Shown: positions 12,566 through 60,363 of the stretch, one piece after another | Layout of the letters: the number at the start of each line of letters is the position of its first letter | Numbering within the stretch: the first letter of the stretch is position 1 | Source of the DNA: Oscillospiraceae bacterium | GTDB taxonomy: Bacteria; Bacillota; Clostridia; Oscillospirales; UBA929 | Reading direction: 5' to 3' | NCBI GenBank assembly: GCA_009782385.1 | Contig: WRJE01000004.1 | Location: 1,549-65,548 of the forward strand | Length of the DNA stretch: 64,000 bases | The notes under the pieces: generated by a model | The model's input: the letters and a program-made list of their open reading frames with translations, nothing else | Database searches by the model: none | What the model was told of the DNA's origin: nothing | Translations under genes and position numbers: made by a program

Positions 12566-12588
12566 GTAGGGACGAACCGCGTTCGTCC
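12566..12588 (+). repeat. REP-like unit (GTAG plus hairpin)
   Basis: GTAG GGACGAAC cgc GTTCGTCC, located just upstream of the hemW start codon (12544, minus strand). Confidence 0.8.
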
Positions 12589-12654
12589 GTTTTACAAGTC
12601 AGCCGCCCCATTTAAGGTAAAATGAAACGGCGTACAGAAAACGGATAAAAAAAC

Positions 12655-12683
12655 TTGACACGGAGTTTAACCAATGGTATTAT
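12655..12683 (+). promoter_or_regulatory. Sigma-A type promoter for a candidate small RNA
   Basis: TTGACA (12655-12660), 17 nt spacer, TATTAT (12678-12683) preceded by TGg (extended -10). Confidence 0.5.
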
Positions 12684-12689
12684 TATGGC

Positions 12690-12788
12690 AGAAAGGGCAA
12701 TACCAAACGGTCTTTGTCCGAAATAGGTCTAATGTTACAATAAGTAACCGCCTACCGGGCTATGGAGGGCGGTTACTTTGTTTTTATT
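12690..12788 (+). ncRNA. Candidate ~100-nt small RNA (promoter to intrinsic terminator), convergent with the 24-codon ORF
   Basis: Bounded by the promoter above and the hairpin plus T-run at 12744-12788. The only ORF is a 13-codon frame with no RBS. Confidence 0.4.
12744..12788. terminator. Bidirectional intrinsic terminator hairpin
   Basis: GTAACCGCC (12744-12752) pairs with GGCGGTTAC (12768-12776). TTTGTTTTTATT follows on the plus strand and TTATTGT on the minus strand. Confidence 0.6.
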
Positions 12789-12847
12789 GCGCGAATGAGG
12801 CTTGCCAGAGCTTGAATTAATTTCCGCAGCTCTATAAGTACACCCAT
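12773..12847 (-). CDS. Candidate 24-aa amphipathic peptide MGVLIELRKLIQALASLIRAIKTK
   Basis: ATG at 12847, TAA at 12773-12775. GGGGGTGA lies 5 nt upstream and sits in a CCCCC-GAAA-GGGGG hairpin. The ORF is below the ORF-track size cutoff. Confidence 0.4.
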   Translation of the reverse strand: MGVLIELRKLIQALASLIRAIKTK

Positions 12848-12928
12848 CGGCTCACCCCCTTTCGGGGGACAAAGACCGCCAACATTGCCCCGTAAACGGC
12901 GTTGCCGCCGCTTACCTGCCATATTGTT

Positions 12929-12957
12929 AAGATACCACAAATCTAAAACTGTGTCAA
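12929..12957 (-). promoter_or_regulatory. Possible promoter for the 24-codon ORF
   Basis: On the minus strand: TTGACA (12952-12957), 17 nt spacer, TGgTATCTT (-10 at 12929-12934). Confidence 0.3.
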
Positions 12958-12986
12958 ATTATAGTCGATATGACGGTAATTCGCCC

Positions 12987-13015
12987 TTGCCGAACCCTGT
13001 AATAATTGATATAAT
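12987..13015 (+). promoter_or_regulatory. Sigma-A type promoter of the LytTR/HPK10 operon
   Basis: TTGCCG (12987-12992), 17 nt spacer, TATAAT (13010-13015), 25 nt before the ATG. Confidence 0.5.
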
Positions 13016-13040
13016 CGTCAAGAGGGAGGGGAAACACCCT

Positions 13041-13745
13041 ATGTACAAAGTCGCCATTTGCGAAGATGAGCAAGTTTTTTCCAACGCGCAGGAGAAAGCC
13101 TGCCGCTCTGTTTTGGAGAAATTGAATATAGAGCATCAAATAGAATTGTACGCGAGCGGTGAGGAGTTTCTCTCTGCCGGACAGAAAGAACGGTATGACC
13201 TTATCCTGCTGGACATCATCATGGGCGGCATGAGCGGTATGGAACTGGCAAAAGTCATCCGCGAATCAGACCGTGAAGCCGTTATCATCTTTATAACGTC
13301 AAGCCGGGAATATGTCTTTGAGGGTTACGATGTAAACGCGCTCCACTATCTGATAAAGCCTGTAGATGTTAACATCTTGGAGCGGCTGATTCGGGAATCT
13401 TATACCGAGAAATTCCAAGACAGCTTCTTTGTATTCAAGACGGGCGGGTTGAATCAGCGCACAGCGGTCAAAGACATCGTATCGCTGGAAACGGTCGGTC
13501 GGAAGGTGGAGGTTACGCTAAAAGACGGTACGCTGCAATATTCCGGCAAGCTGACAGAGTTACTGGAAAAGCTGCCAAAGGGACGTTTTGTCCGCTGTCA
13601 TCAGGCGTTTGCCGTCAACATTGAGAACATAAGGGAGCTTACGCGATTTGAGGCTATAACCCATAACGGGAAAAAGATACCGATTAGCCGTACATTTCAA
13701 AGCGATATAAAGAAAGCGTTTCTAAGACAGATGGGAGGGAGATAA
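13041..13745 (+). CDS. LytTR-family response regulator (AgrA/ComE-like)
   Basis: MYKVAICEDE...LILLDIIMGGMSG receiver domain plus a C-terminal LytTR domain (...FVRCHQAFAVNIENI). AGGGAGGGG RBS. The upstream part of ORF 12885 is rejected. Confidence 0.9.
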   Translation: MYKVAICEDEQVFSNAQEKACRSVLEKLNIEHQIELYASGEEFLSAGQKERYDLILLDIIMGGMSGMELAKVIRESDREAVIIFITSSREYVFEGYDVNALHYLIKPVDVNILERLIRESYTEKFQDSFFVFKTGGLNQRTAVKDIVSLETVGRKVEVTLKDGTLQYSGKLTELLEKLPKGRFVRCHQAFAVNIENIRELTRFEAITHNGKKIPISRTFQSDIKKAFLRQMGGR

Positions 13746-13749
13746 AAAG

Positions 13750-15225
13750 ATGAAAAAATTCATGCCCCCATTGTGGTATATTCTGATTGTGTCCGGCGTT
13801 TTTGCCGCGCTTGTCTATTTTTGCATGATACGCTGGCATATACAACTGTCAAACGGCATACCTCTTGACCCGAATCTCTTCCAAGTCACGAATATGGGTG
13901 AAAAAGCTCCGGGTATTATGCCTTATGTTTTGGAATGGAATGCGTTTAACATAGCGGGATTATTGATTTGCTTGGTCTTGGGGAGTATATGCCTGATTCT
14001 GGGCGTTATCCGCGCTTTGAACAAACTGAGCTGCAAGCATATTTTTTTAATCGCGCTTTTCTCTTTGCTCTTCTCCATTGATAAGCTGTCCGTGTCTGAT
14101 TTTGCGCTCAGAACGTTAAGTGCGGAATTTTTGTTCTATGTTACAAGAGTTACATATATATTCTATCCCATCGCGTTGTTTACGCACTTATACTATTATT
14201 TGCGGCACTCCGCGCGAAAGTGGATGTCTCCGCTTATTATTATGCTCGTTGTGTATGCGGTTGCCTCATGGGTGATGTATCTCGGGTTTGGGCTGCCGCT
14301 CAGTGTGCCTAATATGTTCTATACATATGTATCTGCGGCTTGCTCGGTCATATTCTTGGGCGTTGGTTCATTTGCTGCCGAATCAAAAGCCGCCGCGCGT
14401 TATATCCGCACCATTTCCGCCGCGTGGATTTGTTGGTTAGTATATATGGTTGTTAAAAGCGCGGCAGGTATCCAAACCGTTTGGGCTAACGAGTATATGG
14501 TTGCGATTACCGTCAGTGTTGCGTTCATGTTATCTTATGTGCTGCTTGTAAATACCCTCGAATTGGAAAATTACAAGACAGAAGCTAGATTGTTGGAACT
14601 TAGAAACGGGCTGCTCGTGGAAAACTATCAAACCCTCGAAGCCTATATGTCTCAAATCGCGCAGATGAAGCATGAAATGCGCCATCATCTGCTCGCTATG
14701 AAAATCTTGACGGATGACTGCAAACACGAACAGCTCGCCGCGTATCTGACTGATATTCAAGACAGTTATACTGAAGCTCCGGAAATTGTAATTTGCGGTC
14801 ATCGTATGATACAGTCGGTACTCGGACACGCGGCTCAACGAGCCGGACAAATGGGTTTTGAGATTAGTTTTGACATCTCCCCTCTGCCGCCTCTTACCAT
14901 AACCGATACGGATACCGTCAGCCTTCTAATGAACCTGATAAATAACGCTTTGGAGAGCTGTGAAAAAATGCAATCCCCGGAAAAAAGATGGATTACCGTT
15001 GCGGCTAAACCCCGCGCGCCGTATCTTTATATTTCTGTAAAAAACAGTTCCGGCGGCGATGTGAGGGTGAAAAACGGTCGGTATATCAGCACAAAGGAAG
15101 ACCCGTTTTTTCACGGTCACGGATTGACCGTTGTACACGGCATTGCGAAAAAGTATAACGGATTTGCCGAGTTTGAGCATACGGAAGATTCGTTTTGCGC
15201 GGAGGTCGCGCTGCGTGTGATATAA
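13750..15225 (+). CDS. Polytopic sensor histidine kinase, HPK10 (AgrC/ComD-like) type
   Basis: Multi-pass hydrophobic N-terminal half. H-box QMKHEMRHHLLAM, N-box LLMNLINNALESC, G-box HGHGLTVVHGIAKKY. Confidence 0.85.
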   Translation: MKKFMPPLWYILIVSGVFAALVYFCMIRWHIQLSNGIPLDPNLFQVTNMGEKAPGIMPYVLEWNAFNIAGLLICLVLGSICLILGVIRALNKLSCKHIFLIALFSLLFSIDKLSVSDFALRTLSAEFLFYVTRVTYIFYPIALFTHLYYYLRHSARKWMSPLIIMLVVYAVASWVMYLGFGLPLSVPNMFYTYVSAACSVIFLGVGSFAAESKAAARYIRTISAAWICWLVYMVVKSAAGIQTVWANEYMVAITVSVAFMLSYVLLVNTLELENYKTEARLLELRNGLLVENYQTLEAYMSQIAQMKHEMRHHLLAMKILTDDCKHEQLAAYLTDIQDSYTEAPEIVICGHRMIQSVLGHAAQRAGQMGFEISFDISPLPPLTITDTDTVSLLMNLINNALESCEKMQSPEKRWITVAAKPRAPYLYISVKNSSGGDVRVKNGRYISTKEDPFFHGHGLTVVHGIAKKYNGFAEFEHTEDSFCAEVALRVI

Positions 15226-15244
15226 GTAATACCGAATAAATTCA

Positions 15245-15377
15245 TGTAGGGTCGGGCTTCCATGCCCGACCGTTTTGTATGTTTATCGACAATCCGGCGG
15301 CGCGTCCGGGAAGCCGCGCCCTACTATGCCCGACCGTTTTGTATGTATATCGGTAGGGAACGCCGCCATCGGCGTTC
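15245..15377. repeat. Cluster of three REP-like units (forward, reverse, forward) with an internal 27-bp direct repeat
   Basis: GTAGGGTCGGGCttccatGCCCGACC (15245-15270). GGCGCG...CGCGCCCTAC (15296-15323). GTAGGGAACGCCGccatCGGCGTTCC (15352-15377). atgcccgaccgttttgtatgt occurs twice. Confidence 0.85.
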
Positions 15378-15388
15378 CGCGCCTATTT

Positions 15389-15459
15389 TGTGTCAGTTAT
15401 GTCGGTTTTCGTGTCAACTGCGTCAGACTACTTGAATGTAGTTAATCCTGTTCGTATAC
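15389..15459 (+). promoter_or_regulatory. Candidate LytTR-type direct repeats plus promoter upstream of the first secreted paralog
   Basis: GTGTCAGTT (15389-15397) and GTGTCAACT (15410-15418) are 21 bp apart. Then TTGAAT (15431-15436), 17 nt spacer, TATACT (15454-15459). Confidence 0.4.
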
Positions 15460-15500
15460 TGGGTGCAGGTAACATAATTACTTTTAGGAGGAATCTGACT

Positions 15501-17510: not shown

Positions 17511-17579
17511 GTGTTGACAACGCTCGCAGCCCTCTTTATAATGGAAATAGGAATATTTTCTTATAGAGGGGGATGCTTT

Positions 17580-18653: not shown

Positions 18654-18655
18654 GC

Positions 18656-21336: not shown

Positions 21337-21384
21337 ATTCTTTACTCCTTACTGTTTGTATAATTTAGGCCGCCCGCCAACTTC

Positions 21385-24053: not shown

Positions 24054-24093
24054 CATTTTAGCATACTTATATGTAATCGGTCAAGCCCCTACC

Positions 24094-24288: not shown

Positions 24289-26238
24289 ATGAAAACTTTT
24301 AAGCGAACTTTGTTTGTCTTTTTATGCGCGGCTGTGTTTGCCGCAGTTATCGGCGCGGGCGTACCCGCCCTCGCGGACGATTACGTTTCGTTCACCATAG
24401 AAGAGGGATATTTGGGCGATATTACCATCTACCTCAAGATGGAAGGTTTTGACGATGCTAACGATGAGGGCAGAGCCTTCTATTACGAAGGGGGCTACGC
24501 TGATTACAACTGGGATCCACGACATAACGTAGGCGATACTGTTCCCGCAAATTTTGCCTACTTGAAGAAAATAACAGCCGAAACAACGAGCATTAAAGGC
24601 GATTCCCGCTCGGATAGCAGCGAACTATCTTGGGAGAATGGTGTCTATAGTCAGACCCCCTTTGGTTCCGGTGTAAGGTATCGGGTTTACGAACTTGACG
24701 AAAACCGTAAAGTTCTTAAAATGTGGGAGCTAATCGGTAACGACATGAATCCGCAAGTGAAAATACCCCCTAAAACTCCCACATTGACTACAGCGAATAG
24801 GCAAGGGGGTGTTCTACTTCGTGCAGATTATCTCACTGTTACATCGAACAGATATTATTTTGAACTCAAAGCTGCGCCGTATACGCCCGCGTATAACGTA
24901 GGCGATACCGCTGTCAAAAGCAACCTTACACAGCTTAAGCATGAGGATTCCTATGAAGAGAAGTACGGCGACCCCGGGACAGATATGACGATGTATATGT
25001 ATGAAATCGCGCCTGATAATAAAGTTCTCGCGCGGATTGAATTGACGGCGAAGACGCAGGCGGATTTTACGCCGTATGACGCTGTTTACAAGTGCGGCGA
25101 TAAAATAACGAGCGTACACGCGGCTGTAGCGAACCCGGAATCGGTTATTGCCGCAATCAACAAGAAGATTAAAGAATTGGCGGATGCCGGAGAATTAGGA
25201 GTACATACCGGTGTCTATTTCGAGCGGCAGAATCCAAGTTACGTTCCCGGCAGTACGGGTTCAACTAAAGACTTTGAGGCTTTTCTGCCGGATAAGTGGA
25301 TAGCGGGACGCTTCTATTTGAAAACAGGCACAGTTACAGTCTCAAACGTCACCCCCGGTTACAACGAGCCCCAAATCAAGTTTACAGCCGACGCTCCCTA
25401 TAGCGGCGCACCCGCAAACTCCATCATAGTAAACACCACCACATCCGACGGCGCGACAATCAACCTAACCACTGAGACAATCGACCTCGCGGGGTTCACA
25501 GTGGCGGCATACAGCATAGACGGCGGTACGAAGTGGAAAAAAGGGCCTCTGCCCGCCGGAGAAAAATTCAAGAAGATGCTCAACAAGCCGATGACATTGT
25601 GGCTGTCCGACACTTGGAAAGACAAGGCCGTTAAAGCCGACCCCGACAAAAATATCGAGGCCGTTGCCAAAGGCGTTCCGGATAACGCTAGGATTGCCAA
25701 GTTCCCCGCTCTTGAAAAACGACCCAAGAAGAACGAGGAAAAGCTGAAACCCTATTACGGCGACACACATTGGGTGCTTGCACAGAAGGACAGCGCGGAA
25801 GCGGTGTTCAGCGGCTATGAATACGCCCCGTCATCCAACGGGAAAACCCCGACCGGAAACTGGGAAGCTGTGCCGTCAAGCGGATTCGGAATTGTGTCGG
25901 GCGCGACTAAACTTACATACCTGTTCCGTACCGCGCCGAACAGCACGACCCCTGCCAGCGCACCGTTCAAAATAAAACCCGCCAACTTCGGCAAAGCACC
26001 CGCTTACAAGATTAAGGACACAAAAGACCCCGCAGATAAAACTATAATAATCAAAGTCATCGCCTTTAAGAAGGGCGACCAATACGCCGTTGGAAGCGAG
26101 GGGTACACCCCTGCTTTGGAAGATAAACTGACGCTCACTGTCGCCGAATTAGCGGAGAGGGGCGCGAATCTGAACGTCAGAAAGGCCGCAACGGGCAAGA
26201 AACCACCATCAGACGCGCAGAGCATAGCACTCAAATAA
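24289..26238 (+). CDS. Secreted paralog P2: internally duplicated N-terminal region plus the conserved C-terminal module
   Basis: Signal peptide MKTFKRTLFVFLCAAVFAAVIGAGVPALA. Internal repeat (NVGDT...YRVYELDENRKVLKMWEL / NVGDT...MYMYEIAPDNKVLARIEL). AAGGAGGA RBS. Confidence 0.85.
   Translation: MKTFKRTLFVFLCAAVFAAVIGAGVPALADDYVSFTIEEGYLGDITIYLKMEGFDDANDEGRAFYYEGGYADYNWDPRHNVGDTVPANFAYLKKITAETTSIKGDSRSDSSELSWENGVYSQTPFGSGVRYRVYELDENRKVLKMWELIGNDMNPQVKIPPKTPTLTTANRQGGVLLRADYLTVTSNRYYFELKAAPYTPAYNVGDTAVKSNLTQLKHEDSYEEKYGDPGTDMTMYMYEIAPDNKVLARIELTAKTQADFTPYDAVYKCGDKITSVHAAVANPESVIAAINKKIKELADAGELGVHTGVYFERQNPSYVPGSTGSTKDFEAFLPDKWIAGRFYLKTGTVTVSNVTPGYNEPQIKFTADAPYSGAPANSIIVNTTTSDGATINLTTETIDLAGFTVAAYSIDGGTKWKKGPLPAGEKFKKMLNKPMTLWLSDTWKDKAVKADPDKNIEAVAKGVPDNARIAKFPALEKRPKKNEEKLKPYYGDTHWVLAQKDSAEAVFSGYEYAPSSNGKTPTGNWEAVPSSGFGIVSGATKLTYLFRTAPNSTTPASAPFKIKPANFGKAPAYKIKDTKDPADKTIIIKVIAFKKGDQYAVGSEGYTPALEDKLTLTVAELAERGANLNVRKAATGKKPPSDAQSIALK
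25450..26235 (+). other. Conserved C-terminal module, copy in P2 (262 aa)
   Basis: GATINLTTET...VAAYSIDGGTKWKKGPLP...KFPALEKRPKKNEEKLKPYY...LFRTAP...FKKGDQ...RKAATGKKP. Confidence 0.85.
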
Positions 26239-26255: not shown

Positions 26256-26391
26256 GTAGGGACGAACTGCGTTCGTCCGCGGGCGGCCAATGACCGCCCC
26301 TACGGCATACCATGCGTTTTCGCGGGCGGACGAACGGCCGCCCCTACGACATACCGTGCGTTTTCGCGGGCGGACGAACGGCCGCCCCTAC
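26256..26391. repeat. REP-like cluster between P2 and P3 (one forward unit, three reverse units including a 44-bp tandem duplication)
   Basis: GTAGGGACGAACtgcGTTCGTCC (26256-26278). GGGCGGccaatgaCCGCCCCTAC (26281-26303). Two tandem units ...cgttttcgcGGGCGGacgaacggCCGCCCCTAC (26304-26347 and 26348-26391). Confidence 0.85.
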
Positions 26392-26463
26392 ACGGGAAAA
26401 TAAAAAAACGGAGCGGCAAGGATGACCGCCCGGAAGACAATTATTATCAAGGAGGAAATTACA

Positions 26464-29400
26464 ATGAAAAAACGATCAATTCTAAGCATGGTGCTTGTAC
26501 TCACGATGATAATTTCCATGTTCACATTCGGCGGGACAATGGCGGTTGCGGCGGAGTATGTGCCGGGTGTGATTACTATCACAAAACAGCCGCCGTCATC
26601 AATAACTGTTACGCAGGGGCAAATAGACACCCAACTTACGATTGACGCGACATCCACCGGAAAACAAAACGCTTATATGGAAGATTACAAAGAACCTATT
26701 CGCGCGGAATGGAAGCAGACCTCTGCAAGCGGAGAACCCTCCGGGACTGACAGCGTTTTGGGACAAGGAATTGGACAGTCGTCTACTCTCTACTTCCTGC
26801 CGTCAACATTTAAGATTCCGACAGGCTTAGCTCCCGGCGTACATTACTTCTATGCTACCGTTATATCTGGTAGACGTACCAGCGGCGATACCGGTACAGG
26901 CTCGCCCAGCGTCACTTCCGATGTTACAAAAGTAATCGTTTTACCAAGCGCGTCTACCCAATCAACGGGTTTGAATACAATAAAAGGTTTATACATGATA
27001 CGAGACAAAACATCCATGGAAGCATTTGATGTAGGCGCGTGGAACAACATAAGCGAGACTATGCTGTTTAACGCGGGTTTTATAGATGAACCGACACTGG
27101 CATCAGAAAAAATTGATGCCGTAATGAATGCGTTAAGAGACGCTCATCCAAATACTGACGGTTCAGAAGCGGCTTCATTGCCGTCTTTCAGCATACAGGA
27201 AATGCAAAAAATTATCTACGGTGCGCTCGGCGGTAAGTATAGGTGGACGGAAACCAATACTCCTGTAGACCCAACGGGAACAAAGGGCGCGTGGACGGTA
27301 AAATTTCCCGAAGATATTGCTACTTCGGATAGAAATTCTTATCCTCCCTTTATTACATTATATCCGGGTGAATCTTATGAAGTAAGATACGATTCACCTG
27401 CGGGCAGTGGAAGCGATAATAGGCAGCCTGCCGCACAGGCGGCTGAAGGCTTCTACAACGCGGTTATGGCATCCGCCGCGATAACGGCAAACTATGATAT
27501 AACCTACTCAGGCGTTACGCTTACTTTCACGCAAAAAGTGCCGAGCAGAGATTTTGCGGATACCGTCAATTCGATTGACAAAAGTAAAATATTACAGAGT
27601 TACTACTTTGGCTCCACATATGTATTGATACCTCAAACCACCTATTTTTCAAATGGTATAACTGCCGGTGCCGGACCCTCTTATGAACCAGAAGTCACAA
27701 GAGTAACTCAACCAATCCCCGTGACACCCGGAATCGCGGGCGTTTACAGGCTTACTATCCAAGCTCCTCTCAGCAAAGGCGAGACGATTAAGATTGGCGG
27801 CGATACATATACATCGGCGGGCGATACGGACGATGCCGCCGCGATAGGCGCAATGACTTTTGATAACTTTACTGTAAGCGTCAGCGGTAATGAAGTTATA
27901 TTCACACAGAAAAATCCAAGCACCTCAAGTAATACCTTAGGCGGCAGTTCGGGCGGCGGAGCAACGGACGGCGACGCGAACGGCACAATCAGTAAGGGTG
28001 ACGCACCCGCTCCTCATATCAACCTCACAGCCGAGACAGTCAACGCCGGGTATGAAGTAGCGGCATACAGCATTGACGGCGGCAAGAAGTGGAAAAAAGG
28101 ACCTCTGCCCGAAGATAAGAAACTGGCGGGACTGTTCAACAAGGGTATGACCCTATGGCTAACAGATAAATATAACGACAAAGACGTAAAAGAAGAGAAA
28201 ACAGTAGTGGCTAAAAAAGGCGTTGCGGACGGCGCGAATGTCGTCAAGTTCCCCAAGATAGAAAAACGCCCCAAAGCCAACGCGGAAAAACTCGCGCCGT
28301 TCTATTACCACGCGACACCCTCGAGCTGGTTCATGACCAAGAAAGGCGCGAAAACGTACTCCGAACCCACAGGCAAGTACGAATGGGCGGATACGGAAGA
28401 CGGTAAAGCCGCGAGCAGCGCGTGGCAGTCACTTCCCGATGTTGGCTGGACAATCGAGGATACAGGCACAAAGAAGACAGTCCTGTTCCGTTCCGCGCCC
28501 GTGGCGGACGAGGGCAAATATATACCCGGAAGCAAGATATTCAAAGTAAAGCCCGCCGCATACGGCAAAGCTCCCAATTATAAGATTAAATCGGTTAAAA
28601 ACCCGGACAATAAAGACACCAAACTCAATGTCTTACCGTTTAAGAAAGGCGACCAGTACTTAGTTGTGGGCGGTATCGGCGGCAGACCGGAAGCGTGGAT
28701 TGAGCCGTTGACAGCCAAGTTGGATATCCAAGTCGGCGAATTGGGCCCGGAGGGTACAAAAGTACACATCAGGAAAGGCGCGACAGGCAAGAAGCCCGCA
28801 TCGGCGATTCAGGAGATAGCTCTGCCCGAGGGCATTGCCAAAATCGAGTATGTAACGGTTACTGTTGCGAGCGATGCGGACGGGGTTAAGTATACATATT
28901 CGCAGTCTTCGCTCGCCAATGCCGTACCCGGAAAGGGTATCAACTTGCCGAAAGACGGATTCAGCCTTATAGTCGGCGCGACCATACACATCCACGCCGA
29001 TTGGGACGATAGTGGCGTTAATAAAGCACAGCAGATAAGCTATAAGGCGATAGGAGCAGATGTTGACGATGGTAAGGCTCTGGCATTCAACGATTGGAAA
29101 ATCGGTGCGCCGAAAATCGCCGCGAAATCTCAACCGAAAGTGACCGAGAAAGAGATTATAATTACAGGCAGCGGGTTTAAGACCGGAACGACCGACATTC
29201 TTTTGCAAAACTTCACAATCGAAGGCAGCGCGGCGGGCAAGGTAACGGGCATAGACGCGACTGCAACAGAGGTTAAGTTCACAACGACAACCGCTTTGGC
29301 ATCGGGCGACAAGATAACGATTACGGCAAAGCCCGCCGCATATAGCACAGCACCCATGCTTAACAGTAACACGGTGACGTTCACGGTTGACGTTGACGAG

Positions 29401-29670
29401 GCGGCGTTTGACACGGCAATCGCAAAACTGACGGCAGTAGAAAACAAACTCGGCGAGATAGCCGCACTCGCGGCTTGGGATGCCGCAGGTGGTCCGGCTA
29501 AACGTAGTCTGGTAGTCGATGCCGTTGCGGCTATAGTTGGAAGTGCGGTTACGGTTTCATCACCTGCGACAACTCCGACCGACACTTCCCATACGGTGAC
29601 TATTACATCCAAAACTAAACCCGAGCTATACTCAAAAGATGTTACCGTTACTTATACAATCGGCTCGTAG
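26464..29670 (+). CDS. Secreted paralog P3: large N-terminal region, conserved module, and an extra ~280-aa C-terminal extension
   Basis: Signal peptide MKKRSILSMVLVLTMIISMF...MAVAAE. AAGGAGGA RBS before the ATG at 26464. The stop TAG lies inside the GTAG of a REP unit. Confidence 0.85.
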   Translation: MKKRSILSMVLVLTMIISMFTFGGTMAVAAEYVPGVITITKQPPSSITVTQGQIDTQLTIDATSTGKQNAYMEDYKEPIRAEWKQTSASGEPSGTDSVLGQGIGQSSTLYFLPSTFKIPTGLAPGVHYFYATVISGRRTSGDTGTGSPSVTSDVTKVIVLPSASTQSTGLNTIKGLYMIRDKTSMEAFDVGAWNNISETMLFNAGFIDEPTLASEKIDAVMNALRDAHPNTDGSEAASLPSFSIQEMQKIIYGALGGKYRWTETNTPVDPTGTKGAWTVKFPEDIATSDRNSYPPFITLYPGESYEVRYDSPAGSGSDNRQPAAQAAEGFYNAVMASAAITANYDITYSGVTLTFTQKVPSRDFADTVNSIDKSKILQSYYFGSTYVLIPQTTYFSNGITAGAGPSYEPEVTRVTQPIPVTPGIAGVYRLTIQAPLSKGETIKIGGDTYTSAGDTDDAAAIGAMTFDNFTVSVSGNEVIFTQKNPSTSSNTLGGSSGGGATDGDANGTISKGDAPAPHINLTAETVNAGYEVAAYSIDGGKKWKKGPLPEDKKLAGLFNKGMTLWLTDKYNDKDVKEEKTVVAKKGVADGANVVKFPKIEKRPKANAEKLAPFYYHATPSSWFMTKKGAKTYSEPTGKYEWADTEDGKAASSAWQSLPDVGWTIEDTGTKKTVLFRSAPVADEGKYIPGSKIFKVKPAAYGKAPNYKIKSVKNPDNKDTKLNVLPFKKGDQYLVVGGIGGRPEAWIEPLTAKLDIQVGELGPEGTKVHIRKGATGKKPASAIQEIALPEGIAKIEYVTVTVASDADGVKYTYSQSSLANAVPGKGINLPKDGFSLIVGATIHIHADWDDSGVNKAQQISYKAIGADVDDGKALAFNDWKIGAPKIAAKSQPKVTEKEIIITGSGFKTGTTDILLQNFTIEGSAAGKVTGIDATATEVKFTTTTALASGDKITITAKPAAYSTAPMLNSNTVTFTVDVDEAAFDTAIAKLTAVENKLGEIAALAAWDAAGGPAKRSLVVDAVAAIVGSAVTVSSPATTPTDTSHTVTITSKTKPELYSKDVTVTYTIGS
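28003..28824 (+). other. Conserved module, copy in P3 (274 aa, internal rather than terminal)
   Basis: APAPHINLTAET...VAAYSIDGGKKWKKGPLP...KFPKIEKRPKANAEKLAPFY...LFRSAP...FKKGDQ...RKGATGKKP. Confidence 0.85.
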
Positions 29671-29780
29671 GGACGAACTTTGGTCGTCCGTGGGCGGCCA
29701 TCTTTTGAACGGTCGGGCATGGAAGCCCGACCCTACGGGAAACCGTGCGTTTTCGCGGGCGGACGAACGGCCGCCCCTAC
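29667..29780. repeat. REP-like cluster downstream of P3
   Basis: GTAGGGACGAactttggTCGTCC (29667-29689). GGTCGGGCatggaaGCCCGACCCTAC (29711-29736) is the exact reverse complement of 15245-15270. ...GGGCGGacgaacggCCGCCCCTAC ends at 29780. Confidence 0.85.
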
Positions 29781-29790
29781 ACGGGAAAAT

Positions 29791-29835
29791 AAAAAAACGC
29801 GGCGGGGTCATTTGACCCCGCCCCGGTTTTTATTA
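29791..29835. terminator. Bidirectional intrinsic terminator between P3 and the anti-sigma gene
   Basis: AAAAAAA, then GCGGGGTCA ttt TGACCCCGC, then cccGGTTTTTATTATTATTT. Confidence 0.7.
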
Positions 29836-30807
29836 TTATTTCCTATTCCTCACAAACCCCACCGTCAGTAAAGCTATACCTGCAAACAGTCCCGTCAGAA
29901 GGGTTATCAAAAAGACATTGGCATCTGTTGTCGTATAGTTCCACACAAACAAGTTTGCTTCGCTAAAGCTGAATATCGGCTTTGCGTCCAGTATCCAACT
30001 TACTATGTTGCCGACGGTTGAGAGGAATACGCCGCCGATTATTGAACATATTCCGGCTCTTATAAACCCGTTGAGCCTTGCGTAGCGGATAATCGCGAAC
30101 AATGCCCAAGGGAACAATACACAGGCGGAGGTAATCAGTATGGCGGGTCTCCAATAATCCGGGCTGCTTCCGTGTATCCCGCTGATAATTATTGTCGCGT
30201 ACAATAACAGCGTGTCGGCGGTCATGATAATCAAGCCCTTGTGCCGTGAGATAAACCCTGTCAACGGCAGCTGATACATAACAACGGGCAGGAACAACAC
30301 CGATAAACCGAACAGCGAAGGTATGACGGCGACAAAGAACCAATTACCGCCGGAATATATGTTGACGGTCAGCAGTAATAAAGTCAGGCTTCCGGCGAAA
30401 CTTCCGACAGTCCAAAGGCCTTTGCGCTGTTCCGCGACCATCGGCACGACCGAAACCGATGCCGCGACCATCAGAGAGGTCAGCACGATAAAGAACCAGT
30501 CAAGCGCGTGTCCGGTTGCGAGATTAACGATAAGGCTTACTACAATGGGCACTGCCATAACCGACGCGATACTGATTCCCGCAATCAGTGATTTACGCTT
30601 GAACTTCTCGGCGTGCCGCCCGACTACATTATCGCGCTCATTAGTCAGCTTTGCCTCAAGCGTTTCATCGTCAATTTTCCGCAGCTCATTTTTGCATTTT
30701 TCACATTCGGAAATGTGTTCCTCGATAATTTGCCTGCTGTGTTCACTGCATACGCCGTCATGGTATAACGGCAGCAAGTCTTTTACCAGTTCGCAAGAGT
30801 GTTTCAT
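29836..30807 (-). CDS. Anti-sigma factor with an N-terminal zf-HC2 domain and a polytopic membrane region
   Basis: CELVKDLLPLYHDGVCSEHSRQIIEEHISECEKCKNEL (H-x3-C-x2-C), followed by several hydrophobic helices. 4-bp overlap with the sigma gene. Confidence 0.75.
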   Translation of the reverse strand: MKHSCELVKDLLPLYHDGVCSEHSRQIIEEHISECEKCKNELRKIDDETLEAKLTNERDNVVGRHAEKFKRKSLIAGISIASVMAVPIVVSLIVNLATGHALDWFFIVLTSLMVAASVSVVPMVAEQRKGLWTVGSFAGSLTLLLLTVNIYSGGNWFFVAVIPSLFGLSVLFLPVVMYQLPLTGFISRHKGLIIMTADTLLLYATIIISGIHGSSPDYWRPAILITSACVLFPWALFAIIRYARLNGFIRAGICSIIGGVFLSTVGNIVSWILDAKPIFSFSEANLFVWNYTTTDANVFLITLLTGLFAGIALLTVGFVRNRK

Positions 30808-31786: not shown

Positions 31787-31828
31787 GCGGGAGAGCCGGT
31801 TTGAAAATCGGCTCTCTCGCGTTTTTTT
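31787..31828 (+). terminator. Second, stronger intrinsic terminator
   Basis: GCGGGAGAGCCG gtttgaaaat CGGCTCTCTCGC followed by GTTTTTTT. Confidence 0.6.
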
Positions 31829-31932
31829 CGCGGATACCATATTATGACAGTTATCGCGTGGGACATACCGTATACTTGTTATGTAAACCATTTGCGGATA
31901 ACAAATATTCTTATGATATGGAGGGAAATATA

Positions 31933-32787
31933 ATGAAAAATCTTGCGTTTTGGGAAAAGAACCGCGTTATATACATAAAATCGGGCGAAATAATTCCCAA
32001 TCCGGCACAGCCCCGCAAGTCTTTTGAGCCAAACGGCTTGAAAGAGCTTGCTAACAGCATACGCGAACTGGGTATCTTGCAGCCGCTGACCGTCAGAAAG
32101 TCAAACGGCGGTTATGAGCTTGTCGCCGGTGAAAGACGGCTTAGAGCGTCACGTATGGCGGGGCTTTCGGAAGTGCCGTGTATCGTTACGGAAGCGGACG
32201 AACAGCGTTCGTCGCTTATAGCTCTGGTAGAAAACCTTCAGCGGCGCGATTTGGATTTCTTTGAGGAAGCCGAAGGTATAAAACGGCTTATAGACCTCTA
32301 TGGTCTGTCACAGGAGGAAGCATCGAGGCGGCTTGGCAAATCACAGCCCGCCGTTGCCAATAAACTGCGTATACTTAGGTTTGATGAGCAAACCAGAGAC
32401 ATCATGCGTAACGGCAATCTGACGGAGCGGCACGCCCGCGCGCTCCTGCGCGTTGAAAAACCTGAAAGCAGGCGCGAGGTGCTTGAGTTAATCATTGAGC
32501 GCGGTCTGAATGTCGCCCAGACTGAGGCGTATATTGATGACTTATTAACACAGAAGCCCGCGCGGATTATACCTATAGCTCAACCCCCGCAGAAGAACGA
32601 ACGCCCGGCAAAAATACACTATATCGTTAAGGATGTGCGGCTGTTTTTGAACACGGTCGAGCGTGCCGTAGATGTGATGCGCGGCGCGGGCGTTGCTGCC
32701 GACATGGAAAAAGAGGAACTTGACGATGAAATTATCCTAAAAATAAGCATACCGAGAAAAAAGGCAAAAATAACGGCGTTGCAGTAG
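31933..32787 (+). CDS. ParB/Spo0J/Noc-family DNA-binding protein (no adjacent ParA)
   Basis: IPNPAQPRKSF, GILQPLTVRK, ELVAGERRLRASRMAG and an HTH (SQEEASRRLGKSQPAVANKLRIL). GGAGGG RBS before the ATG at 31933. Confidence 0.85.
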   Translation: MKNLAFWEKNRVIYIKSGEIIPNPAQPRKSFEPNGLKELANSIRELGILQPLTVRKSNGGYELVAGERRLRASRMAGLSEVPCIVTEADEQRSSLIALVENLQRRDLDFFEEAEGIKRLIDLYGLSQEEASRRLGKSQPAVANKLRILRFDEQTRDIMRNGNLTERHARALLRVEKPESRREVLELIIERGLNVAQTEAYIDDLLTQKPARIIPIAQPPQKNERPAKIHYIVKDVRLFLNTVERAVDVMRGAGVAADMEKEELDDEIILKISIPRKKAKITALQ

Positions 32788-32809
32788 GGCGTGACGGTCT
32801 CGGCACGCC
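32784..32809 (+). repeat. REP-like unit overlapping the parB-like stop codon
   Basis: GTAG GGCGTG acggtctcgg CACGCC. The TAG of GTAG is the stop codon. Confidence 0.7.
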
Positions 32810-32826
32810 GTTTGGAATGTCAGAGC

Positions 32827-33644: not shown

Positions 33645-33713
33645 GGGCGGTCAATGACCGCCCCTACGAACGAGATTGCATTATAAACGGGCGACCGTGA
33701 CGGTCACCCTTAC
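33645..33713 (-). repeat. Two reverse-oriented REP-like units
   Basis: GGGCGGTCaatGACCGCCCCTAC (33645-33667). GGGCGACCGtgaCGGTCACCCTTAC (33689-33713), which overlaps the arsR-like stop. Confidence 0.75.
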
Positions 33714-39763: not shown

Positions 39764-39811
39764 GTATGGACGCACTATGTGCGTCCACGGACGACCACAG
39801 GTCGTCCCTAC
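39764..39811. repeat. Two REP-like units between mreD and the PBP2 gene
   Basis: GTAT GGACGCAC tat GTGCGTCC (39764-39786). GGACGACCacagGTCGTCCCTAC (39789-39811). The CTAC supplies the mreD stop. Confidence 0.75.
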
Positions 39812-40323
39812 CTTTTAATCAGCGTTCTTCTGTAAATCGTGCGGGCGGGAAAGTATAAAATAGGCAGCAGCGCGAGCGAATAAAGTATTTCCGGCGTTGT
39901 GACATATATATATGCCCACGAGTCAGCCCGCCTGAACAGCAGTAAAAACGCGGAAACGAACAGCACCTGTGTTACAACCAACACGATTATTGCTAAAAAG
40001 TAAGCGGAGAGAAGCGTTTTTCGCAGGCTGTATTCCGCCACCAGTCCGACCGCGATGCAGAAGAGCATAAGAATCATTGTATAGTATGTCGTGGTATACA
40101 CGGAAATCCAATCGCATATAAGCCCGCAGATAAATCCGGAAAAGCCCCCTATATACGGGCCGGAGAACAGCGATATAATTACGCAGACCATAATAAGCAA
40201 GAGCGGGCGCACATTCAAAACGGGCGGCAGAAGGAACTGAAGCGCAAATGTTAGAAAAATGAGGAGAATATACAGCGAAATTTTAATTATCGCTATACGC
40301 ATACGGTAACTCTCTGTATACAC
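39808..40323 (-). CDS. mreD: Rod shape-determining protein MreD
   Basis: Small polytopic protein directly after mreC. The start may be an internal Met (MRIAIIK). Confidence 0.75.
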   Translation of the reverse strand: MYTESYRMRIAIIKISLYILLIFLTFALQFLLPPVLNVRPLLLIMVCVIISLFSGPYIGGFSGFICGLICDWISVYTTTYYTMILMLFCIAVGLVAEYSLRKTLLSAYFLAIIVLVVTQVLFVSAFLLLFRRADSWAYIYVTTPEILYSLALLPILYFPARTIYRRTLIKR

Positions 40324-49750: not shown

Positions 49751-49894
49751 TTGAAAACCGCCTTTCCATTTAGATTGCTTACAGCGCAGCCGTGCCGGAG
49801 CATGACGGCACTTACTATACCATCATACCATAGTCCGTATCATTCCGCAAGATTTATATTTAATTGTCGGTCGGGTGCTAAAGAGAGGAAATAA

Positions 49895-52223: not shown

Positions 52224-52239
52224 ATAAAACTCACCTCTC

Positions 52240-53169: not shown

Positions 53170-53303
53170 GAATGCGTCCTCCTATAATTTATATTTCCAT
53201 CATAACAGAGCGTTTTACCGAAAAACAGTGATTACAGTCACGAGATTTTGCCGCGCGAAATGACATTTGTAATTTGCTGTGATATAATGTTGTCGGTGAT
53301 GTT

Positions 53304-54371: not shown

Positions 54372-54988
54372 AAGTAGTAATAATCGACGATGACGGCTTT
54401 ATTTGCGCGTCACTGAAAACAATATTACAGGCAGACCCCGAAATTGAGGTTGCCGCCACGGGAACGAGCGGGGAAGAGGCGATAACGCTGTACGAAACCG
54501 TCCGCCCGGACATCCTGCTGACGGACATACGGATGGACGGTCTGAGCGGCTTGGAGGCGGGCGAGCGGATTCTGCAAGCACATCCCGAGGCGAAGATTCT
54601 GTTTCTTACAACCTTTTCCGACAACGAGTATATCGTAAAAGCCCTGCGTATGGGCGCGAAAGGGTATCTGATAAAACAAAACGCCGAGGCTATCGCCCCC
54701 GCGCTGAAAGCTGTCATGTCGGGTCAGAGTGTTTTCGGAAGTGAAGTCGTTTCAAAGCTGCCGTCATTTATAAGCGGTCAGGTAAAACCCGATTTGTCTG
54801 AATACGGCATTATTGAGCGGGAAATGGAAATCATCGAGCAGGTGGCAAAGGGACTGAACAACAAGGAAATCGCGGACACATTGCACCTCAGCGAAGGCAC
54901 GGTCAGAAATTACCTGAGCGTTATTCTGGAAAAGCTCAATTTGCGCGACAGAACTCAACTGGCAGTGTTTTATTACGAAAATCATTGA
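54368..54988 (+). CDS. NarL/LuxR-family response regulator
   Basis: Receiver domain (MKVVIIDDD...DILLTDIRMDGLSG) and a LuxR HTH (EREMEIIEQVAKGLNNKEIADTLHLSEGTVRNY). Confidence 0.9.
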   Translation: MKVVIIDDDGFICASLKTILQADPEIEVAATGTSGEEAITLYETVRPDILLTDIRMDGLSGLEAGERILQAHPEAKILFLTTFSDNEYIVKALRMGAKGYLIKQNAEAIAPALKAVMSGQSVFGSEVVSKLPSFISGQVKPDLSEYGIIEREMEIIEQVAKGLNNKEIADTLHLSEGTVRNYLSVILEKLNLRDRTQLAVFYYENH

Positions 54989-56268: not shown

Positions 56269-56375
56269 AGCGGTCTTCTTTCATTCATTTTATAGAAATA
56301 TTGTACTATAAAAAGTGAAATATGCAAGTGTTTTACGTAATTATTTCAGAAAGCGGAGAAAACGCCAAATATTGT

Positions 56376-56404
56376 TTGACTTTGACGTATTAAGCATATA
56401 TAAT
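56376..56404 (+). promoter_or_regulatory. Sigma-A type promoter of carB
   Basis: TTGACT (56376-56381), 17 nt spacer, TATAAT (56399-56404). Confidence 0.45.
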
Positions 56405-56432
56405 GTATAACTGCGAACAGGGGGAATATTAT

Positions 56433-59400
56433 ATGCCAAAAAGAACGGATATTAAAAAGATACTTATAATCGGCTCAGGGCCGATTATTATCGGGCAAGC
56501 GTGTGAGTTCGATTACTCAGGCACTCAGGCGTGCAAGGCGTTGAGGGCGTTGGGATATGAGATAGTGTTGGTAAACTCCAATCCGGCAACGATAATGACA
56601 GACCCTTCCACCGCCGATGTCACATATATCGAGCCGCTGAATGCCGCGAGGCTTGCGGAGATTATTGAAAAGGAACGCCCCGATGCCCTGTTGCCCAACT
56701 TAGGCGGGCAGTCCGGATTGAATCTCTGTTCGGAACTGGGCAAGGCGGGCATTATTGATAAATTCGGTGTTAAGGTAATCGGTGTGCAGATTGACGCGAT
56801 TGAGCGCGGTGAGGACAGGATTGCCTTTAAGAACGCGATGGACGAGCTGGGTATCGAGATGGCGCGTTCTGAACCCGCGTATTCGGTCGAGCAGGCGGAG
56901 GATATAGCCGAAAGGCTCGGTTACCCCTGCGTAATACGCCCCGCGTATACTATGGGCGGCGCGGGCGGCGGTTTTGTTCATAACGCGGATGAACTCCGCG
57001 TTATTGCCGGGCGGGGTATTTCGGCAAGTATGGTCGGGCAGATTTTGGTCGAGGAGTCTATCGCAGGGTGGGAAGAACTTGAACTTGAGATTGTCCGCGA
57101 CAGCAAGGGGCATATGATAACCGTCTGCTTCATTGAAAATATCGACCCGTTGGGCGTGCATACGGGCGACTCGTTCTGCGCCGCGCCAATGCTGACTATA
57201 TCTGAAGACACTCAAAAGCGTTTGCAGGAGGCGGCATATAAAATCGTCGAATCCATACAGGTAATAGGCGGTACGAACGTACAATTCGCGCACGACCCGA
57301 AAACCGGGCGATTTGTCGTTATAGAGATAAACCCGCGCACATCGCGCTCGTCCGCGCTCGCGTCAAAGGCAACGGGCTTTCCCATCGCGCTTGTTTCGGC
57401 ACAGCTCGCGGCGGGGCTTACTCTCGATGAACTGCCCTGCGGCAGGCACGGCACGTTGGATAAATATGTACCCGCAAGCGATTACGTTGTAATTAAATTC
57501 GCCCGTTGGGCGTTTGAGAAATTTCGCGGCTCGCATGATAAGCTCGGCACACAGATGAAAGCGGTGGGCGAGGTTATGAGCATCGGAAAGACATACAAAG
57601 AGGCGTTTCAAAAAGCTATCCGCAGTCTTGAAATCGGGCGTTACGGTCTTGGCGGCGTGTTCCCTGACGAGACTAAGGAAAATCTTCTTGATATGCTGAA
57701 AAATCCGAGCAGCGAGCGGCACTTTATAGCTTATGAGGCTTTGAAGAAGGGCGCGGCAGTCGATGAAATAGTAAGCATCACAAAGATAAAACGGTACTTT
57801 GTCGAACAGATGAACGAACTGGTCGAGACAGAGAAAAACCTTGTCGCCGCCGGAAAATCCGTTGACGGCGAGCTGCTCGTTAACGCTAAGAAAGACGGCT
57901 TCTCCGACCGCTACATCGCGGGATTGACGGGATTGACGGGATTGACGGAGGAACAGATACGCGGAAAGCGCGTTGGCTTGGGTGTTAACGGCGCGTGGGA
58001 TTCAATCCACGTCTGCGGCACGGAGGACGCGGCGTATTATTATTCGACATACTGCTCCGTGGGGCGCGGCGACCCCGACAAGCCGAGAGAGACCTCAAAA
58101 CGCGATAAGGTTATTATATTGGGCGGCGGTCCGAACCGTATAGGGCAGGGCATAGAGTTCGACTACTGCTGTGTTCACGCGGCGTTTGCCCTGCGGGACT
58201 TGGGTTTTGAAACGATTGTCGTCAACTGCAATCCCGAAACGGTGTCCACGGATTACGACACCTCCGACAGGCTCTATTTTGAGCCGCTGACACTTGAGGA
58301 TGTTTTGAGTATTTACGAGGAGGAAAAACCCTTGGGCGTTATCGCGCAGTTCGGCGGGCAGACACCGCTGAACTTGGCGTTCGAGCTGGAACGCGCGGGA
58401 GTTAACGTGCTTGGCACGTCACCCGGTGCTATAGACTTGGCGGAAGACCGCGACAGATTCGCTAAGATAATGGAAGATTTAGGGATTCCCATGCCCGAAG
58501 CGGGCATGGCGGACAATGTAGATGACGCGCTGAAAGTTGCGGAGAAAATCGGCTACCCGCTGATGGTACGACCGTCGTATGTCTTGGGCGGACGCGGCAT
58601 GGAGGTCGTCTATGACGCGGACGCGCTGAAACGCTACATGAAAGCCGCGATTGGCGTGACCCCCGAACGTCCGATACTGCTTGACCGTTTTCTGTCTAAC
58701 GCCCTTGAGTGCGAATCTGACGCGATAAGCGATGGGGAAAACGTATTTGTCCCCGCCGTCATGGAGCATATTGAACTGGCGGGCATACACTCGGGCGATT
58801 CGGCGTGTGTCCTGCCGCCCGTCACAATACCTGATGATACAACGGAGACGATTATAGAATATACGCAGAAGATAGCGAAGGCACTCAATGTCGTGGGACT
58901 TATGAATATACAGTACGCCATTGAAAGCGGGCGGGTGTATGTGCTTGAGGCAAATCCCCGCGCTTCGCGCACAGTACCGCTTGTCAGCAAGGTGTGCAGC
59001 GTGAATATGGTACGCATAGCGACTGAAATCATAACCGCCGCCGTCACGGGGCGAAAATCTCCCGTGTTGGAATTAAAACGTAAAAAAATCCCCTACTTCG
59101 GGGTTAAAGAGTGTGTTTTGCCGTTTAATATGTTCCCGGAGGTCGATCCAATACTCGGACCGGAAATGCGCTCGACCGGAGAGGTTCTCGGCATAGGTAT
59201 TTCAATGGGCGAGGCGTTCAGAAAGGCGCAGGAGGCGACGGGTACGAGACTTCCCGCTTCCGGCACGGTGCTTCTAACCGTCAGCGACAGGGACAAAAGG
59301 GAAGCGATAGAAATAGCGCGTATGTTTGTCGGGCTGGGGTTTAGGCTTATATCCACTGCCGGAACTCATGCCGCGCTGAAAGCAAACGGCATAGAGAGTG

Positions 59401-59654
59401 TTTCCGTAAACAAAATCCACGAGGGCGGTCATAATATTTTTGACGCGCTGGTTAACAATGAAGTTGACCTTTTGATTAACACGCAGTCCGGCAGCATGAG
59501 CGCGCATGACGACAGCTATATCCGCAAAGCCGCCATACGCCACAACGTGCCTTATGTAACGACAATGGCGGCGGCTCGCGCCGCCGCGTTGGGAATCGGT
59601 TCGCCCGATGGCGGAGTTAAGGCTCTGCAGGAGTATCACAAGGATATTATGTGA
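56433..59654 (+). CDS. carB: Carbamoyl-phosphate synthase large subunit
   Basis: [25 protein letters not shown]. Duplicated ATP-grasp halves and an MGS-like C-domain. ~1073 aa. No carA next to it. Confidence 0.95.
57921..57947 (+). repeat. In-frame 9-bp tandem triplication inside carB
   Basis: ggattgacg x3, encoding GLT-GLT-GLT. Confidence 0.95.
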
Positions 59655-60216
59655 TTTTCCTGCTGCCGGGTTTGACAAGCTCCAACTTCCCCTCTTTGCA
59701 CAGTGGGCAGTCGTCCGCGTCATAGCTCTCGACATTGAATTTTACCGCCGGATACCGTGGAAACCCCAAGTCACCCGTGTATCTGTCCGCAATACACGCA
59801 ACCCCAACGACCGTACCGCCCGCCGCGCGTATGACATCCGCCGTTTCTAGGGTGGACTTGCCTGTCGTGACAACATCCTCCATTATGATAACCTTCGCGC
59901 CGGGCTTTATGACAAATCCGCGCCGCAGGCACATAACGCCGTTCTCGCGTTCGGTGAATACATTGGGCTTGCCTGTCTGGCGCGACAGCTCATATGCCGC
60001 TATGATACCGCCCATGGCGGGACCGACTATAATATCAAAGTCCACATTTTTCAACTGTTCAGCCACCGGGGCGATAACTTCGGCGGCTGTTTTCGGGTCT
60101 TCAAACAATCTCGCGCATTGGCAGTAGCGGTTGGAGTGCCGCCCGGACGAGAGCAGGAAATGCCCCTCTAGGTACGCTCCGGCGTTGGTTAGCGCGGTTA
60201 TGGTTGTGTTGTTCAT
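59647..60216 (-). CDS. pyrE: Orotate phosphoribosyltransferase
   Basis: [14 protein letters not shown]... and the PRPP motif [13 protein letters not shown]. Start at the ATG at 60216; the longer ORF runs through a REP cluster. Confidence 0.9.
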
Positions 60217-60251
60217 ATTATCGTTCCTTTCTTGAAATATTACGTTTTTTT

Positions 60252-60363
60252 GTAGGGTGCGCCGCCCTCGGCGCACCGTTGTAAATATTACCGCCGATGA
60301 CAGGGAAAATGGCGGAACGCACAGGATAGGAAACGGCGGAACGCCGAGGGCGGCGTTCCCTAC
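60252..60363. repeat. Inverted pair of REP-like units between pyrD and pyrE
   Basis: GTAGGGTGCGCCGccctCGGCGCACC (60252-60277). GGAACGCCGagggCGGCGTTCCCTAC (60338-60363). The CTAC supplies the pyrD stop. Confidence 0.85.

Follow-up and report, generated by a model that had tools for sequence, protein, structure and literature searches.

Hairpin units of the window

The stretch analyzed here (the window) comprises 64,000 nt of contig WRJE01000004.1 (C4; positions 1,549 to 65,548) from the Oscillospiraceae bacterium assembly GCA_009782385.1 and carries short GC-rich hairpins, each led by the tetranucleotide GTAG. These hairpins are very probably GTAG-tagged repetitive extragenic palindromic (REP) elements and substrates of the genome's own REP-associated tyrosine transposases (RAYTs), enzymes of the HUH/Y1 type. 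An earlier note, made from the sequence alone, had described about 18 units at eight intergenic sites. All eight sites hold the units described: a strict caller, which required GTAGGG, a stem starting at +4 (i.e., with GG), and at least 6 pairs, returned 16 units in the window, and two further units (33688-33713 and 39764-39787) are degenerate. A ninth, intragenic site, absent from the note's list, brings the total to 16 clean and 3 degenerate units. Two structural classes dominate the family, S (23 to 24 nt with an 8-bp stem) and L (25 to 26 nt with a 9- to 10-bp stem). The sites are given below; units not marked as degenerate are those of the strict set.

12566..12589, +: single S-class unit, GTAGGGACGAACCGCGTTCGTCCG, in a divergent intergenic gap
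15246..15379: three L-class units (26 nt) in a cluster, their stems different (15246-15271, +; 15299-15324, -; 15353-15378, +), between two + strand genes
26256..26391: cluster of four S-class units (26256, +; 26281, -; 26324, -; 26368, -)
29667..29780: cluster of three units (29667, +, S class; 29711, -, L class; 29757, -, S class)
32784..32810, +: single L-class unit, the TAG of which is the stop codon of a ParB/Noc-like open reading frame (ORF; 31801-32787)
33645..33713, -: S-class unit (33645-33667) and a degenerate unit (33688-33713) ending in CCTTAC
39764..39811, mixed strands: degenerate forward unit (39764-39787, GTATGG...) abutting an inverted S-class unit (39789-39811)
60252..60363: head-outward L-class pair (60252-60277, +; 60338-60363, -), spacer of 60 nt
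61535..61564, -: degenerate L-class unit, in frame in a PyrK-like ORF (61250-61996, -), encoding VGRNALGTP

PyrK is the electron-transfer subunit of dihydroorotate dehydrogenase. Folding energies of the window units ranged from −8.7 to −19.1 kcal/mol, and an Rfam scan of the window identified no family at gathering score. The units at 26256 and 26281 form a head-outward dimer with a gap of 2 nt, and those at 26324 and 26368 are part of a 44-bp tandem duplication of spacer plus unit. This duplication, to which the earlier note had drawn attention, is real (26304-26391); its copies at 26304-26347 and 26348-26391 are identical at 42/44 positions, and a third copy lies at 29737-29780. The same ∼65-nt stretch (spacer, 24-nt unit, then ACGGGAAAATAAAAAAACG) was found behind the neighboring genes 24289-26238 and 26422-29670 (at 26304-26412 and 29737-29800, respectively), where the REP cluster was probably copied along with the gene 3′ end. 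The exact reverse complementarity that had been claimed between 15245-15270 and 29711-29736 holds, with the first pair of coordinates off by 1 base (15246-15271).

Genome-wide distribution and anatomy of the units

The genome assembly comprises 2.17 Mb in 104 contigs (denoted C; 48.6% GC, 88% complete). Strict calling across it identified 583 units at 328 sites on 75 of the 104 contigs, representing 207 distinct sequences and a density of ∼0.27 units per kb. At this density, 17 units would be predicted for the window, where 16 were found. The family is therefore not local to the region, a possibility that the earlier note had raised together with its proposal for a genome-wide count. Among the 859 perfect GC-rich hairpins in the genome, the 4 nt at the 5′ flank were GTAG in 266, with the runner-up tetramer reaching 49, so the flank noticed in the window is kept genome-wide. 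Conversely, a hairpin followed 17.8% of all GTAG tetranucleotides but only 6 to 9% of 12 control tetramers (the overlapping TAGG, 17.7%).

The consensus unit reads Y-GTAG-GG-stem-loop-stem-CC-G-Y and spans 23 to 27 nt, with stems of 6 to 10 bp and a fixed stem foot that begins with GG and ends with CC. Conservation across the strict units extends to the immediate flanks, where position −1 is Y in 89%, position +1 is G in 95%, and position +2 is Y in 92%. Sequence beyond the unit is unrelated between copies, and the unit is thus a sharply bounded module. Individual sequences occur in up to 33 exact copies, and many subfamilies have numerous identical copies. Clustered regularly interspaced short palindromic repeat arrays, DDE-type miniature inverted-repeat transposable elements, and assembly artifacts were considered and dropped, as the spacing is irregular, terminal inverted repeats and target duplications are lacking, and the units have unique flanks on 75 contigs.

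Two to 10 units were found at 154 of the 328 sites, and the others hold a single unit. Neighboring pairs were head-outward inverted in 116 cases, head-inward in 29, and tandem in 110; the gap within head-outward pairs was 0 to 2 nt for 32 of the 116 and 20 to 39 nt for 48. Adjacent units carried different stems in 245 cases and the same stem in 10. Together, the excess of head-outward pairs and the unlike neighboring stems point to a mosaic resembling bacterial interspersed mosaic elements (BIMEs) or REP doublets forming hairpins (REPINs). The biggest cluster (C73:892-1330) holds 10 units in ∼440 nt with the strand pattern +--+--+--+, which suggests tandem amplification of a three-unit module.

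Relation to genes and terminators

More than half of the units (317/583) lie in the ∼10% of the genome outside crudely called ORFs. The units, which the earlier note had placed at intergenic sites, are accordingly mostly extragenic; nevertheless, ∼40 units (7%) are in frame inside 22 real genes when at least 100 codons are required on both sides. An initial count of 159 genic units was discarded as inflated because ORFs over-extend through REP clusters. The intragenic units are on contigs C1, C5, C10, C13, C14, C19, C22, C35, C46, C52, and C55, and the genes concerned include the E1/E2/E3 genes of a 2-oxoacid dehydrogenase operon as well as those for UDP-GlcNAc 2-epimerase, RsmB, DnaX, PurL, NAD synthetase, and a serine recombinase. 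Five REP units are held in the DnaX linker alone. Recurrent REP-coded peptides were VGRDAPGAP, VGRGIPDAP, and CRGGHWPP, and in the five genes checked (E3 lipoamide dehydrogenase, UDP-GlcNAc 2-epimerase, RsmB, a radical SAM protein, and DnaX) the inserts lie within or next to Pfam domains.

For 103 units (17.7%), an open frame of at least 100 codons terminates at the TAG of GTAG, compared with 3.7% of all TAG triplets, and ∼1 in 5 genes ending in TAG takes its stop codon from a REP. Some 100 genes obtain their TAG stop in this way, and secondary effects of the units are likely. Window cases begin at 29668, 32785, 39808 (-), and 60360 (-). At the first, the stop codon of a 1082-aa ORF (26422-29670) is the TAG within the GTAG of unit 29667; the second is that of the ParB/Noc-like ORF; and the minus-strand ORFs 39808-40323 and 60360-61298 obtain theirs from the inverted units 39789-39811 (whose CTA is the TAG stop) and 60338-60363. 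The unit nearest a gene end was oriented with the upstream gene in 256 cases and against it in 82, and singletons in tandem gaps showed the same bias (84 versus 28). Since most units follow closely behind a gene end and in sense orientation, their probable place in the transcript is the 3′ untranslated region. For lagging-strand genes, the units still followed the gene strand (10 versus 4; small numbers), which tentatively suggests that the bias tracks the gene strand and not the replication strand.

A bias of this kind would also be expected if the hairpins were diverse Rho-independent terminators or 3′ mRNA stabilizers, with GTAG being incidental or part of the stop-codon context. Convergent gaps were indeed the most often occupied (21.6%, compared with ∼14% for the others), and a few units are followed by TTTT (e.g., 12566 and 15246). 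However, TTTT occurs within 8 nt of just 42/583 units, and five or more T between positions +2 and +8 in just 51/583, and with a T-tract in 7 to 9% of units, the family does not consist of terminators. Divergent, promoter-side gaps were occupied about as often as tandem gaps, and genuine terminators adjoin REP clusters as separate structures, as with the bidirectional terminator at 29801-29822 downstream of the cluster at 29667..29780. Moreover, units of the same kind are found in either orientation, in groups of as many as 10, and in frame within genes; the conserved GTAG and the flanking Y and GY are not needed by terminators; and REP abundance tracks RAYT presence across genomes (see below). 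We therefore consider a terminator or stabilizer origin of the family very improbable. The earlier note had allowed for diverse intrinsic terminators without the GTAG flank; instead, most units lack a T-tract, and GTAG is conserved.

RAYT genes of the genome

A genome scan for the Pfam domain Y1_Tnp gave two matches, an IS200-type TnpA on C10 and a 161-aa ORF on C48. A protein search added a second intact paralog (C20), which the Pfam scan had missed because a REP-derived insert splits the domain, and a remnant (C29). All of the RAYT loci lie outside the window, in line with the earlier note, which had seen no RAYT gene there:

C48:12542-13024, -: intact RAYT, 161 aa, with an S-class internal pair
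C20 ∼29750-30440, -: intact RAYT with an L-class first unit and a ∼70-aa REP-derived insert
C29:26375-26603: RAYT remnant, ending exactly at a REP unit

The best family for the C48 protein was NCBIfam NF047646 (REP_Tyr_transpos, "REP-associated tyrosine transposase") with 64.2 bits, compared with 20 for IS200, and its match to Pfam PF01797 (Y1_Tnp) scored 23.6 bits (cutoff, 23). The sole sequence match in the PDB was Escherichia coli TnpA-REP (4ER8; E value, 1.3e−9). An AlphaFold2 model (pLDDT, the predicted local distance difference test score, of 76.7) also had 4ER8 as its top PDB fold match (E value, 1.4e−8; template modeling [TM] score, 0.64), ahead of the TnpA proteins of ISDra2 and IS608. 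The C48 protein carries the motifs NHVH (HuH), WQ, and YIDDNP; H83, H85, W123, Q124, Y144, N148, and P149 were invariant over 11 aligned RAYTs, as was the WQ...R block. It also has an 8-aa insert after β1 and another between the HuH strand and the next helix. Judged by these insert positions and by the motifs in Table 1 of Quentin et al. 2018 (PMC6006769), the RAYTs fit TnpA-Y1 subclass 2.4, although the consensus YIxNNP is matched inexactly, the fourth position of the Y motif being D/E/K and not N.

The 5′ side of the C48 gene is abutted by a permease gene with no REP, a truncated unit lies at its 3′ end, and a pair is found ∼470 nt further. The earlier note had proposed a search for a Y1 transposase flanked by inverted units. 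A REP-type Y1/HUH gene is present, but the inverted units are inside its coding sequence, and this embedded layout replaces the classical REPtron layout here.

The other Y1_Tnp match was weighed as a possible mobilizer of the units in place of the RAYT-like genes. At C10:4222-5888, a gene for the RNA-guided nuclease IscB (324 bits to NF040563) is immediately followed by the IS200-type TnpA in a low-GC, phage-like stretch. The TnpA belongs to the same superfamily and is a strong match to Y1_Tnp (109 bits). Its low-GC position beside IscB is, however, that of an ordinary IS200/IS605-type element, and its protein sequence, to which the check was confined, carries no REP-like unit. The REP-richness of relatives was tested against the RAYT-like family and tracks it, and the dispersed units sit inside the RAYT-like genes. 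The probability that this TnpA mobilizes the units is thus close to negligible, and the C10 IscB/TnpA locus has no relation to the REPs.

A REP pair embedded in RAYT genes

In each RAYT, in-frame REP units of the coding sequence lie on the two sides of the HuH motif. The C48 gene holds the 24-nt sequence GTAGGGGCGCGCATTGCGCGTCCG twice, forward before the HuH motif and inverted after it, both in frame and with identical arms. The forward copy encodes VGARIARP (aa 42 to 49) and the inverted copy GRAMRAPT (aa 95 to 102), and both inserts are low-confidence loops in the AlphaFold2 model. The internal units are identical to dispersed ones: the genome contains 12 exact copies of the 23-nt unit that GTAGGGGCGCGCATTGCGCGTCCG forms without its trailing G, a count that includes the two inside the gene. 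In tblastn, RAYT residues 41 to 103 matched the opposite strand of the same gene (C48:12717-12905, +; 56% identity). This self-match is partly expected from the inverted REP pair and exceeds what two 8-aa arms give.

Related RAYT genes were drawn from a species-representative genome collection, in which more than 500 loci were found, the best 80 mostly from Clostridia. They come from Oscillospiraceae, Ruminococcus, Gemmiger, Acutalibacteraceae, Christensenellales, Clostridiaceae, and a few other phyla; Gemmiger formicilis and Ruminococcus flavefaciens are among the RAYT-positive species. Both units were present at the same two positions, head-outward and astride HuH, in 61/76 related genes. 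Among the 55 of 74 genes that could be scored for arm identity (both units present, equal length), internal arms were 90.5% identical within a gene compared with 58% between genes, a result reached by 0/2000 permutations. Both arms were of the same length class in 55/56 genes, and with REP-coded residues masked, length class clustered on the RAYT tree (5 changes compared with 19 in shuffles). Because the arms are read in opposite orientations and give different peptides, their match is a property at the DNA level.

RAYT remnants at C29:26375-26603 and in two related genomes (G011:C94:5697-5828 and G019:C164:2578-2787) start or stop at the first internal REP, which suggests that RAYT genes break at their own embedded REPs. 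Two divergent paralogs in the related genome G033 (C9:78654-79200 and C10:74697-75130) have layouts that differ from the embedded pair: in one, a unit within the gene is followed by an inverted unit beyond the gene, and in the other, units lie ahead of the gene, within it, and immediately behind it. These layouts may be intermediates between the flanked and embedded architectures.

The fixed positions astride HuH, the arm matching at the DNA level, the change in step with dispersed REPs and RAYT clade, and the breakpoints of gene decay raise the idea that the embedded head-outward pair is a functional part of the system and not a tolerated insertion, in that it would keep a master copy of the substrate resident in the enzyme gene. 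We put this forward tentatively, as less likely than not. If true, the embedded pair would link enzyme specificity and self-regulation or self-limitation with the REP population.

Co-occurrence with RAYTs and site differences among relatives

REP-richness was scored in 41 related genomes as a simple pattern count against a built-in control. Ten of the 14 genomes with a full-length RAYT were REP-rich, compared with 0/27 of those without (Fisher p = 9e−7). In genome G028, the single RAYT has the same internal unit as C48, and GTAGGGGCGCGCATTGCGCGTCCG is the commonest dispersed REP among the first 100 matches listed (26/100), mostly paired head-outward with GTAGGGGCGGCCATTGGCCGTCCG (22/100 among the matches listed). 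The RAYT of G001 has GTAGGGGCGCGCATTGCGCGTCCG and GTAGGGGCGGCCATTGGCCGTCCG as its internal units.

Several observations weigh against the hairpins being REPs served by these RAYTs. Four RAYT-positive genomes (G001, G006, G013, and G015) were not REP-rich by the simple pattern, and for several abundant stem subfamilies the 88%-complete assembly contains no RAYT whose internal unit matches. The C48 score to NF047646 falls below the curated cutoff of 80, and REPs do not flank the RAYT genes on both sides, as they would in a REPtron. The gene context statistics rest on crude ORF calls. Finally, the three same-genus genomes are too diverged for DNA synteny, matching in just a few gene fragments (67 to 80% identity) and REP units, and orthologous gene ends and proteins were therefore compared instead.

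This comparison identified lineage-specific insertions. At the end of the ParB-like gene, this genome has an L unit and G002 a different one of the S class, with G001 lacking a REP, and the in-frame unit of UDP-GlcNAc 2-epimerase is missing from seven orthologues. REP presence and type thus vary between congeners at orthologous sites; the earlier note had suggested such a comparison for intergenic regions. From sequence, such differences support insertion after divergence, without proving present-day activity.

The units could, on the other hand, be true REPs that are now immobile relics, with the RAYTs domesticated for another role or decaying and the pattern left by old bursts, local duplication, and gene conversion. 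Compatible with this are the 44-bp module of spacer plus unit that was duplicated locally with downstream sequence behind two neighboring genes, the existence of RAYT remnants (C29 here; G011 and G019), the near absence of REPs from G001 in spite of its RAYT, and the argument that RAYTs behave as vertically inherited single-copy genes (PMC5581495). Yet many subfamilies retain numerous identical copies (up to 33 exact), the REP type at the same gene end differs between congeners, and the HuH, Y, and WQ...R block is invariant in the 11 aligned RAYTs. Embedded arms that are matched within a gene but differ between genes also argue for continuing turnover, and overall we regard the relic reading as unlikely.

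We prefer to read the units as REP elements acted on by the genome's own RAYTs, and the earlier note's inference of a REP-analogous family in a Firmicute gains support from the genome-wide units, the GTAG flank, the RAYT genes, and the site differences. By analogy with E. coli TnpA-REP and the TnpA of IS200/IS605 elements, the RAYT would recognize the folded hairpin in single-stranded DNA and read the 5′ GTAG as a guide. The catalytic tyrosine would cleave next to GTAG and then rejoin the ends, and this cleavage and rejoining could spread or rearrange units.

Comparison with known systems

The survey of GTAG REPs by Di Nocera, De Gregorio & Rocco 2013 (PMC3733652) covered Proteobacteria, Cyanobacteria, Chloroflexi, and the PVC (Planctomycetes-Verrucomicrobia-Chlamydiae) group only. 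Subclass 2.4 is identical to Group 4 of the RAYTs in Bertels et al. 2017 (PMC5581495), and Quentin et al. 2018 (PMC6006769) gave its taxa as "Cyanobacteria, Bacteroidetes and various phyla." In the portion of the supplementary text of PMC6006769 that was available, no Clostridia or Firmicutes names were found, and a full-text literature search combining REP/RAYT with Firmicutes, Clostridia, or Ruminococcaceae returned nothing specific. The view of the earlier note that REP/RAYT systems are poorly documented in Firmicutes fits the surveys PMC3733652 and PMC6006769.

The units share with the GTAG REP superfamily (E. coli REP/BIME and Pseudomonas REPINs) a stem-loop rich in GC whose 5′ GTAG is unpaired, dispersal in hundreds of copies, several stem families per genome, inverted dimers, and mosaics. 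Common to both are also a location mainly after genes, with TAG often being the stop codon, and occasional copies in frame within genes, some of them replication genes (here DnaX). They differ in their host, an Oscillospiraceae (Bacillota), in being very short (23 to 27 nt), and in the fixed GG...CC stem foot, the G after the stem, and adjacent units that almost never have the same stem.

In-frame REP insertions are described as a hallmark of subclass 2.4, generally lying between HuH and Y and probably representing neutral loop insertions (PMC6006769). The RAYTs analyzed here agree with that subclass in NH[IFV]H, WQ, and Y...NP, the lack of a C-terminal extension, more than one copy per genome, the early-core 8-aa insertion, the variable insertion between β3 (HuH) and αC, and the in-frame REPs. 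They depart from it as published in that this genome and the 61/76 related genes have a fixed head-outward pair with one unit on each side of HuH, in that the two arms agree with one another and with the REPs dispersed in the host, and in taxa, the best 80 of the more than 500 loci being mostly clostridial. In-frame REPs in subclass 2.4 genes are therefore already published, and the fixed, matched head-outward pair describes this feature more sharply.

E. coli TnpA-REP (RayT/YafM; 4ER8), a member of subclass 2.2, is the best sequence and fold match. GTAG lies at the hairpin foot in both systems, and the HuH, Y, and W-Q...R residues, the last assigned to GTAG recognition, align. Identity is ∼24%, however, and in E. 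coli REPs flank the gene (a REPtron), with none inside; E. coli REPs are also longer and have bulges. The TnpA proteins of IS200/IS605 elements (IS608 and ISDra2) have in common with the RAYTs the fold, the chemistry, and the logic of a hairpin plus 5′ guide tetranucleotide. Their hairpins, in contrast, mark the ends of a gene-carrying transposon, whereas those described here are free-standing, number in the hundreds, and are not accompanied by repetition of the gene as a unit.

Implications

To our knowledge, work on REP/RAYT systems has dealt almost exclusively with Proteobacteria and Cyanobacteria. Given that Firmicutes are absent from the GTAG REP surveys consulted and that the literature searches returned nothing specific, the present case extends a known system to a new lineage, in which one gut Oscillospiraceae genome combines a dense two-class REP population with both candidate enzymes. 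For annotation, REP clusters make false ORF extensions and place REP-coded peptides (e.g., VGRDAPGAP) inside real proteins. For assembly, some contig breaks in metagenome-assembled genomes may be due in part to the repeats; in the related genome G010, one contig ends within ∼30 nt of a RAYT-internal REP. Strain typing is a third practical use. As the enzyme gene carries its own substrate, the subclass is a convenient model for RAYT specificity and its co-evolution with REP sequence.

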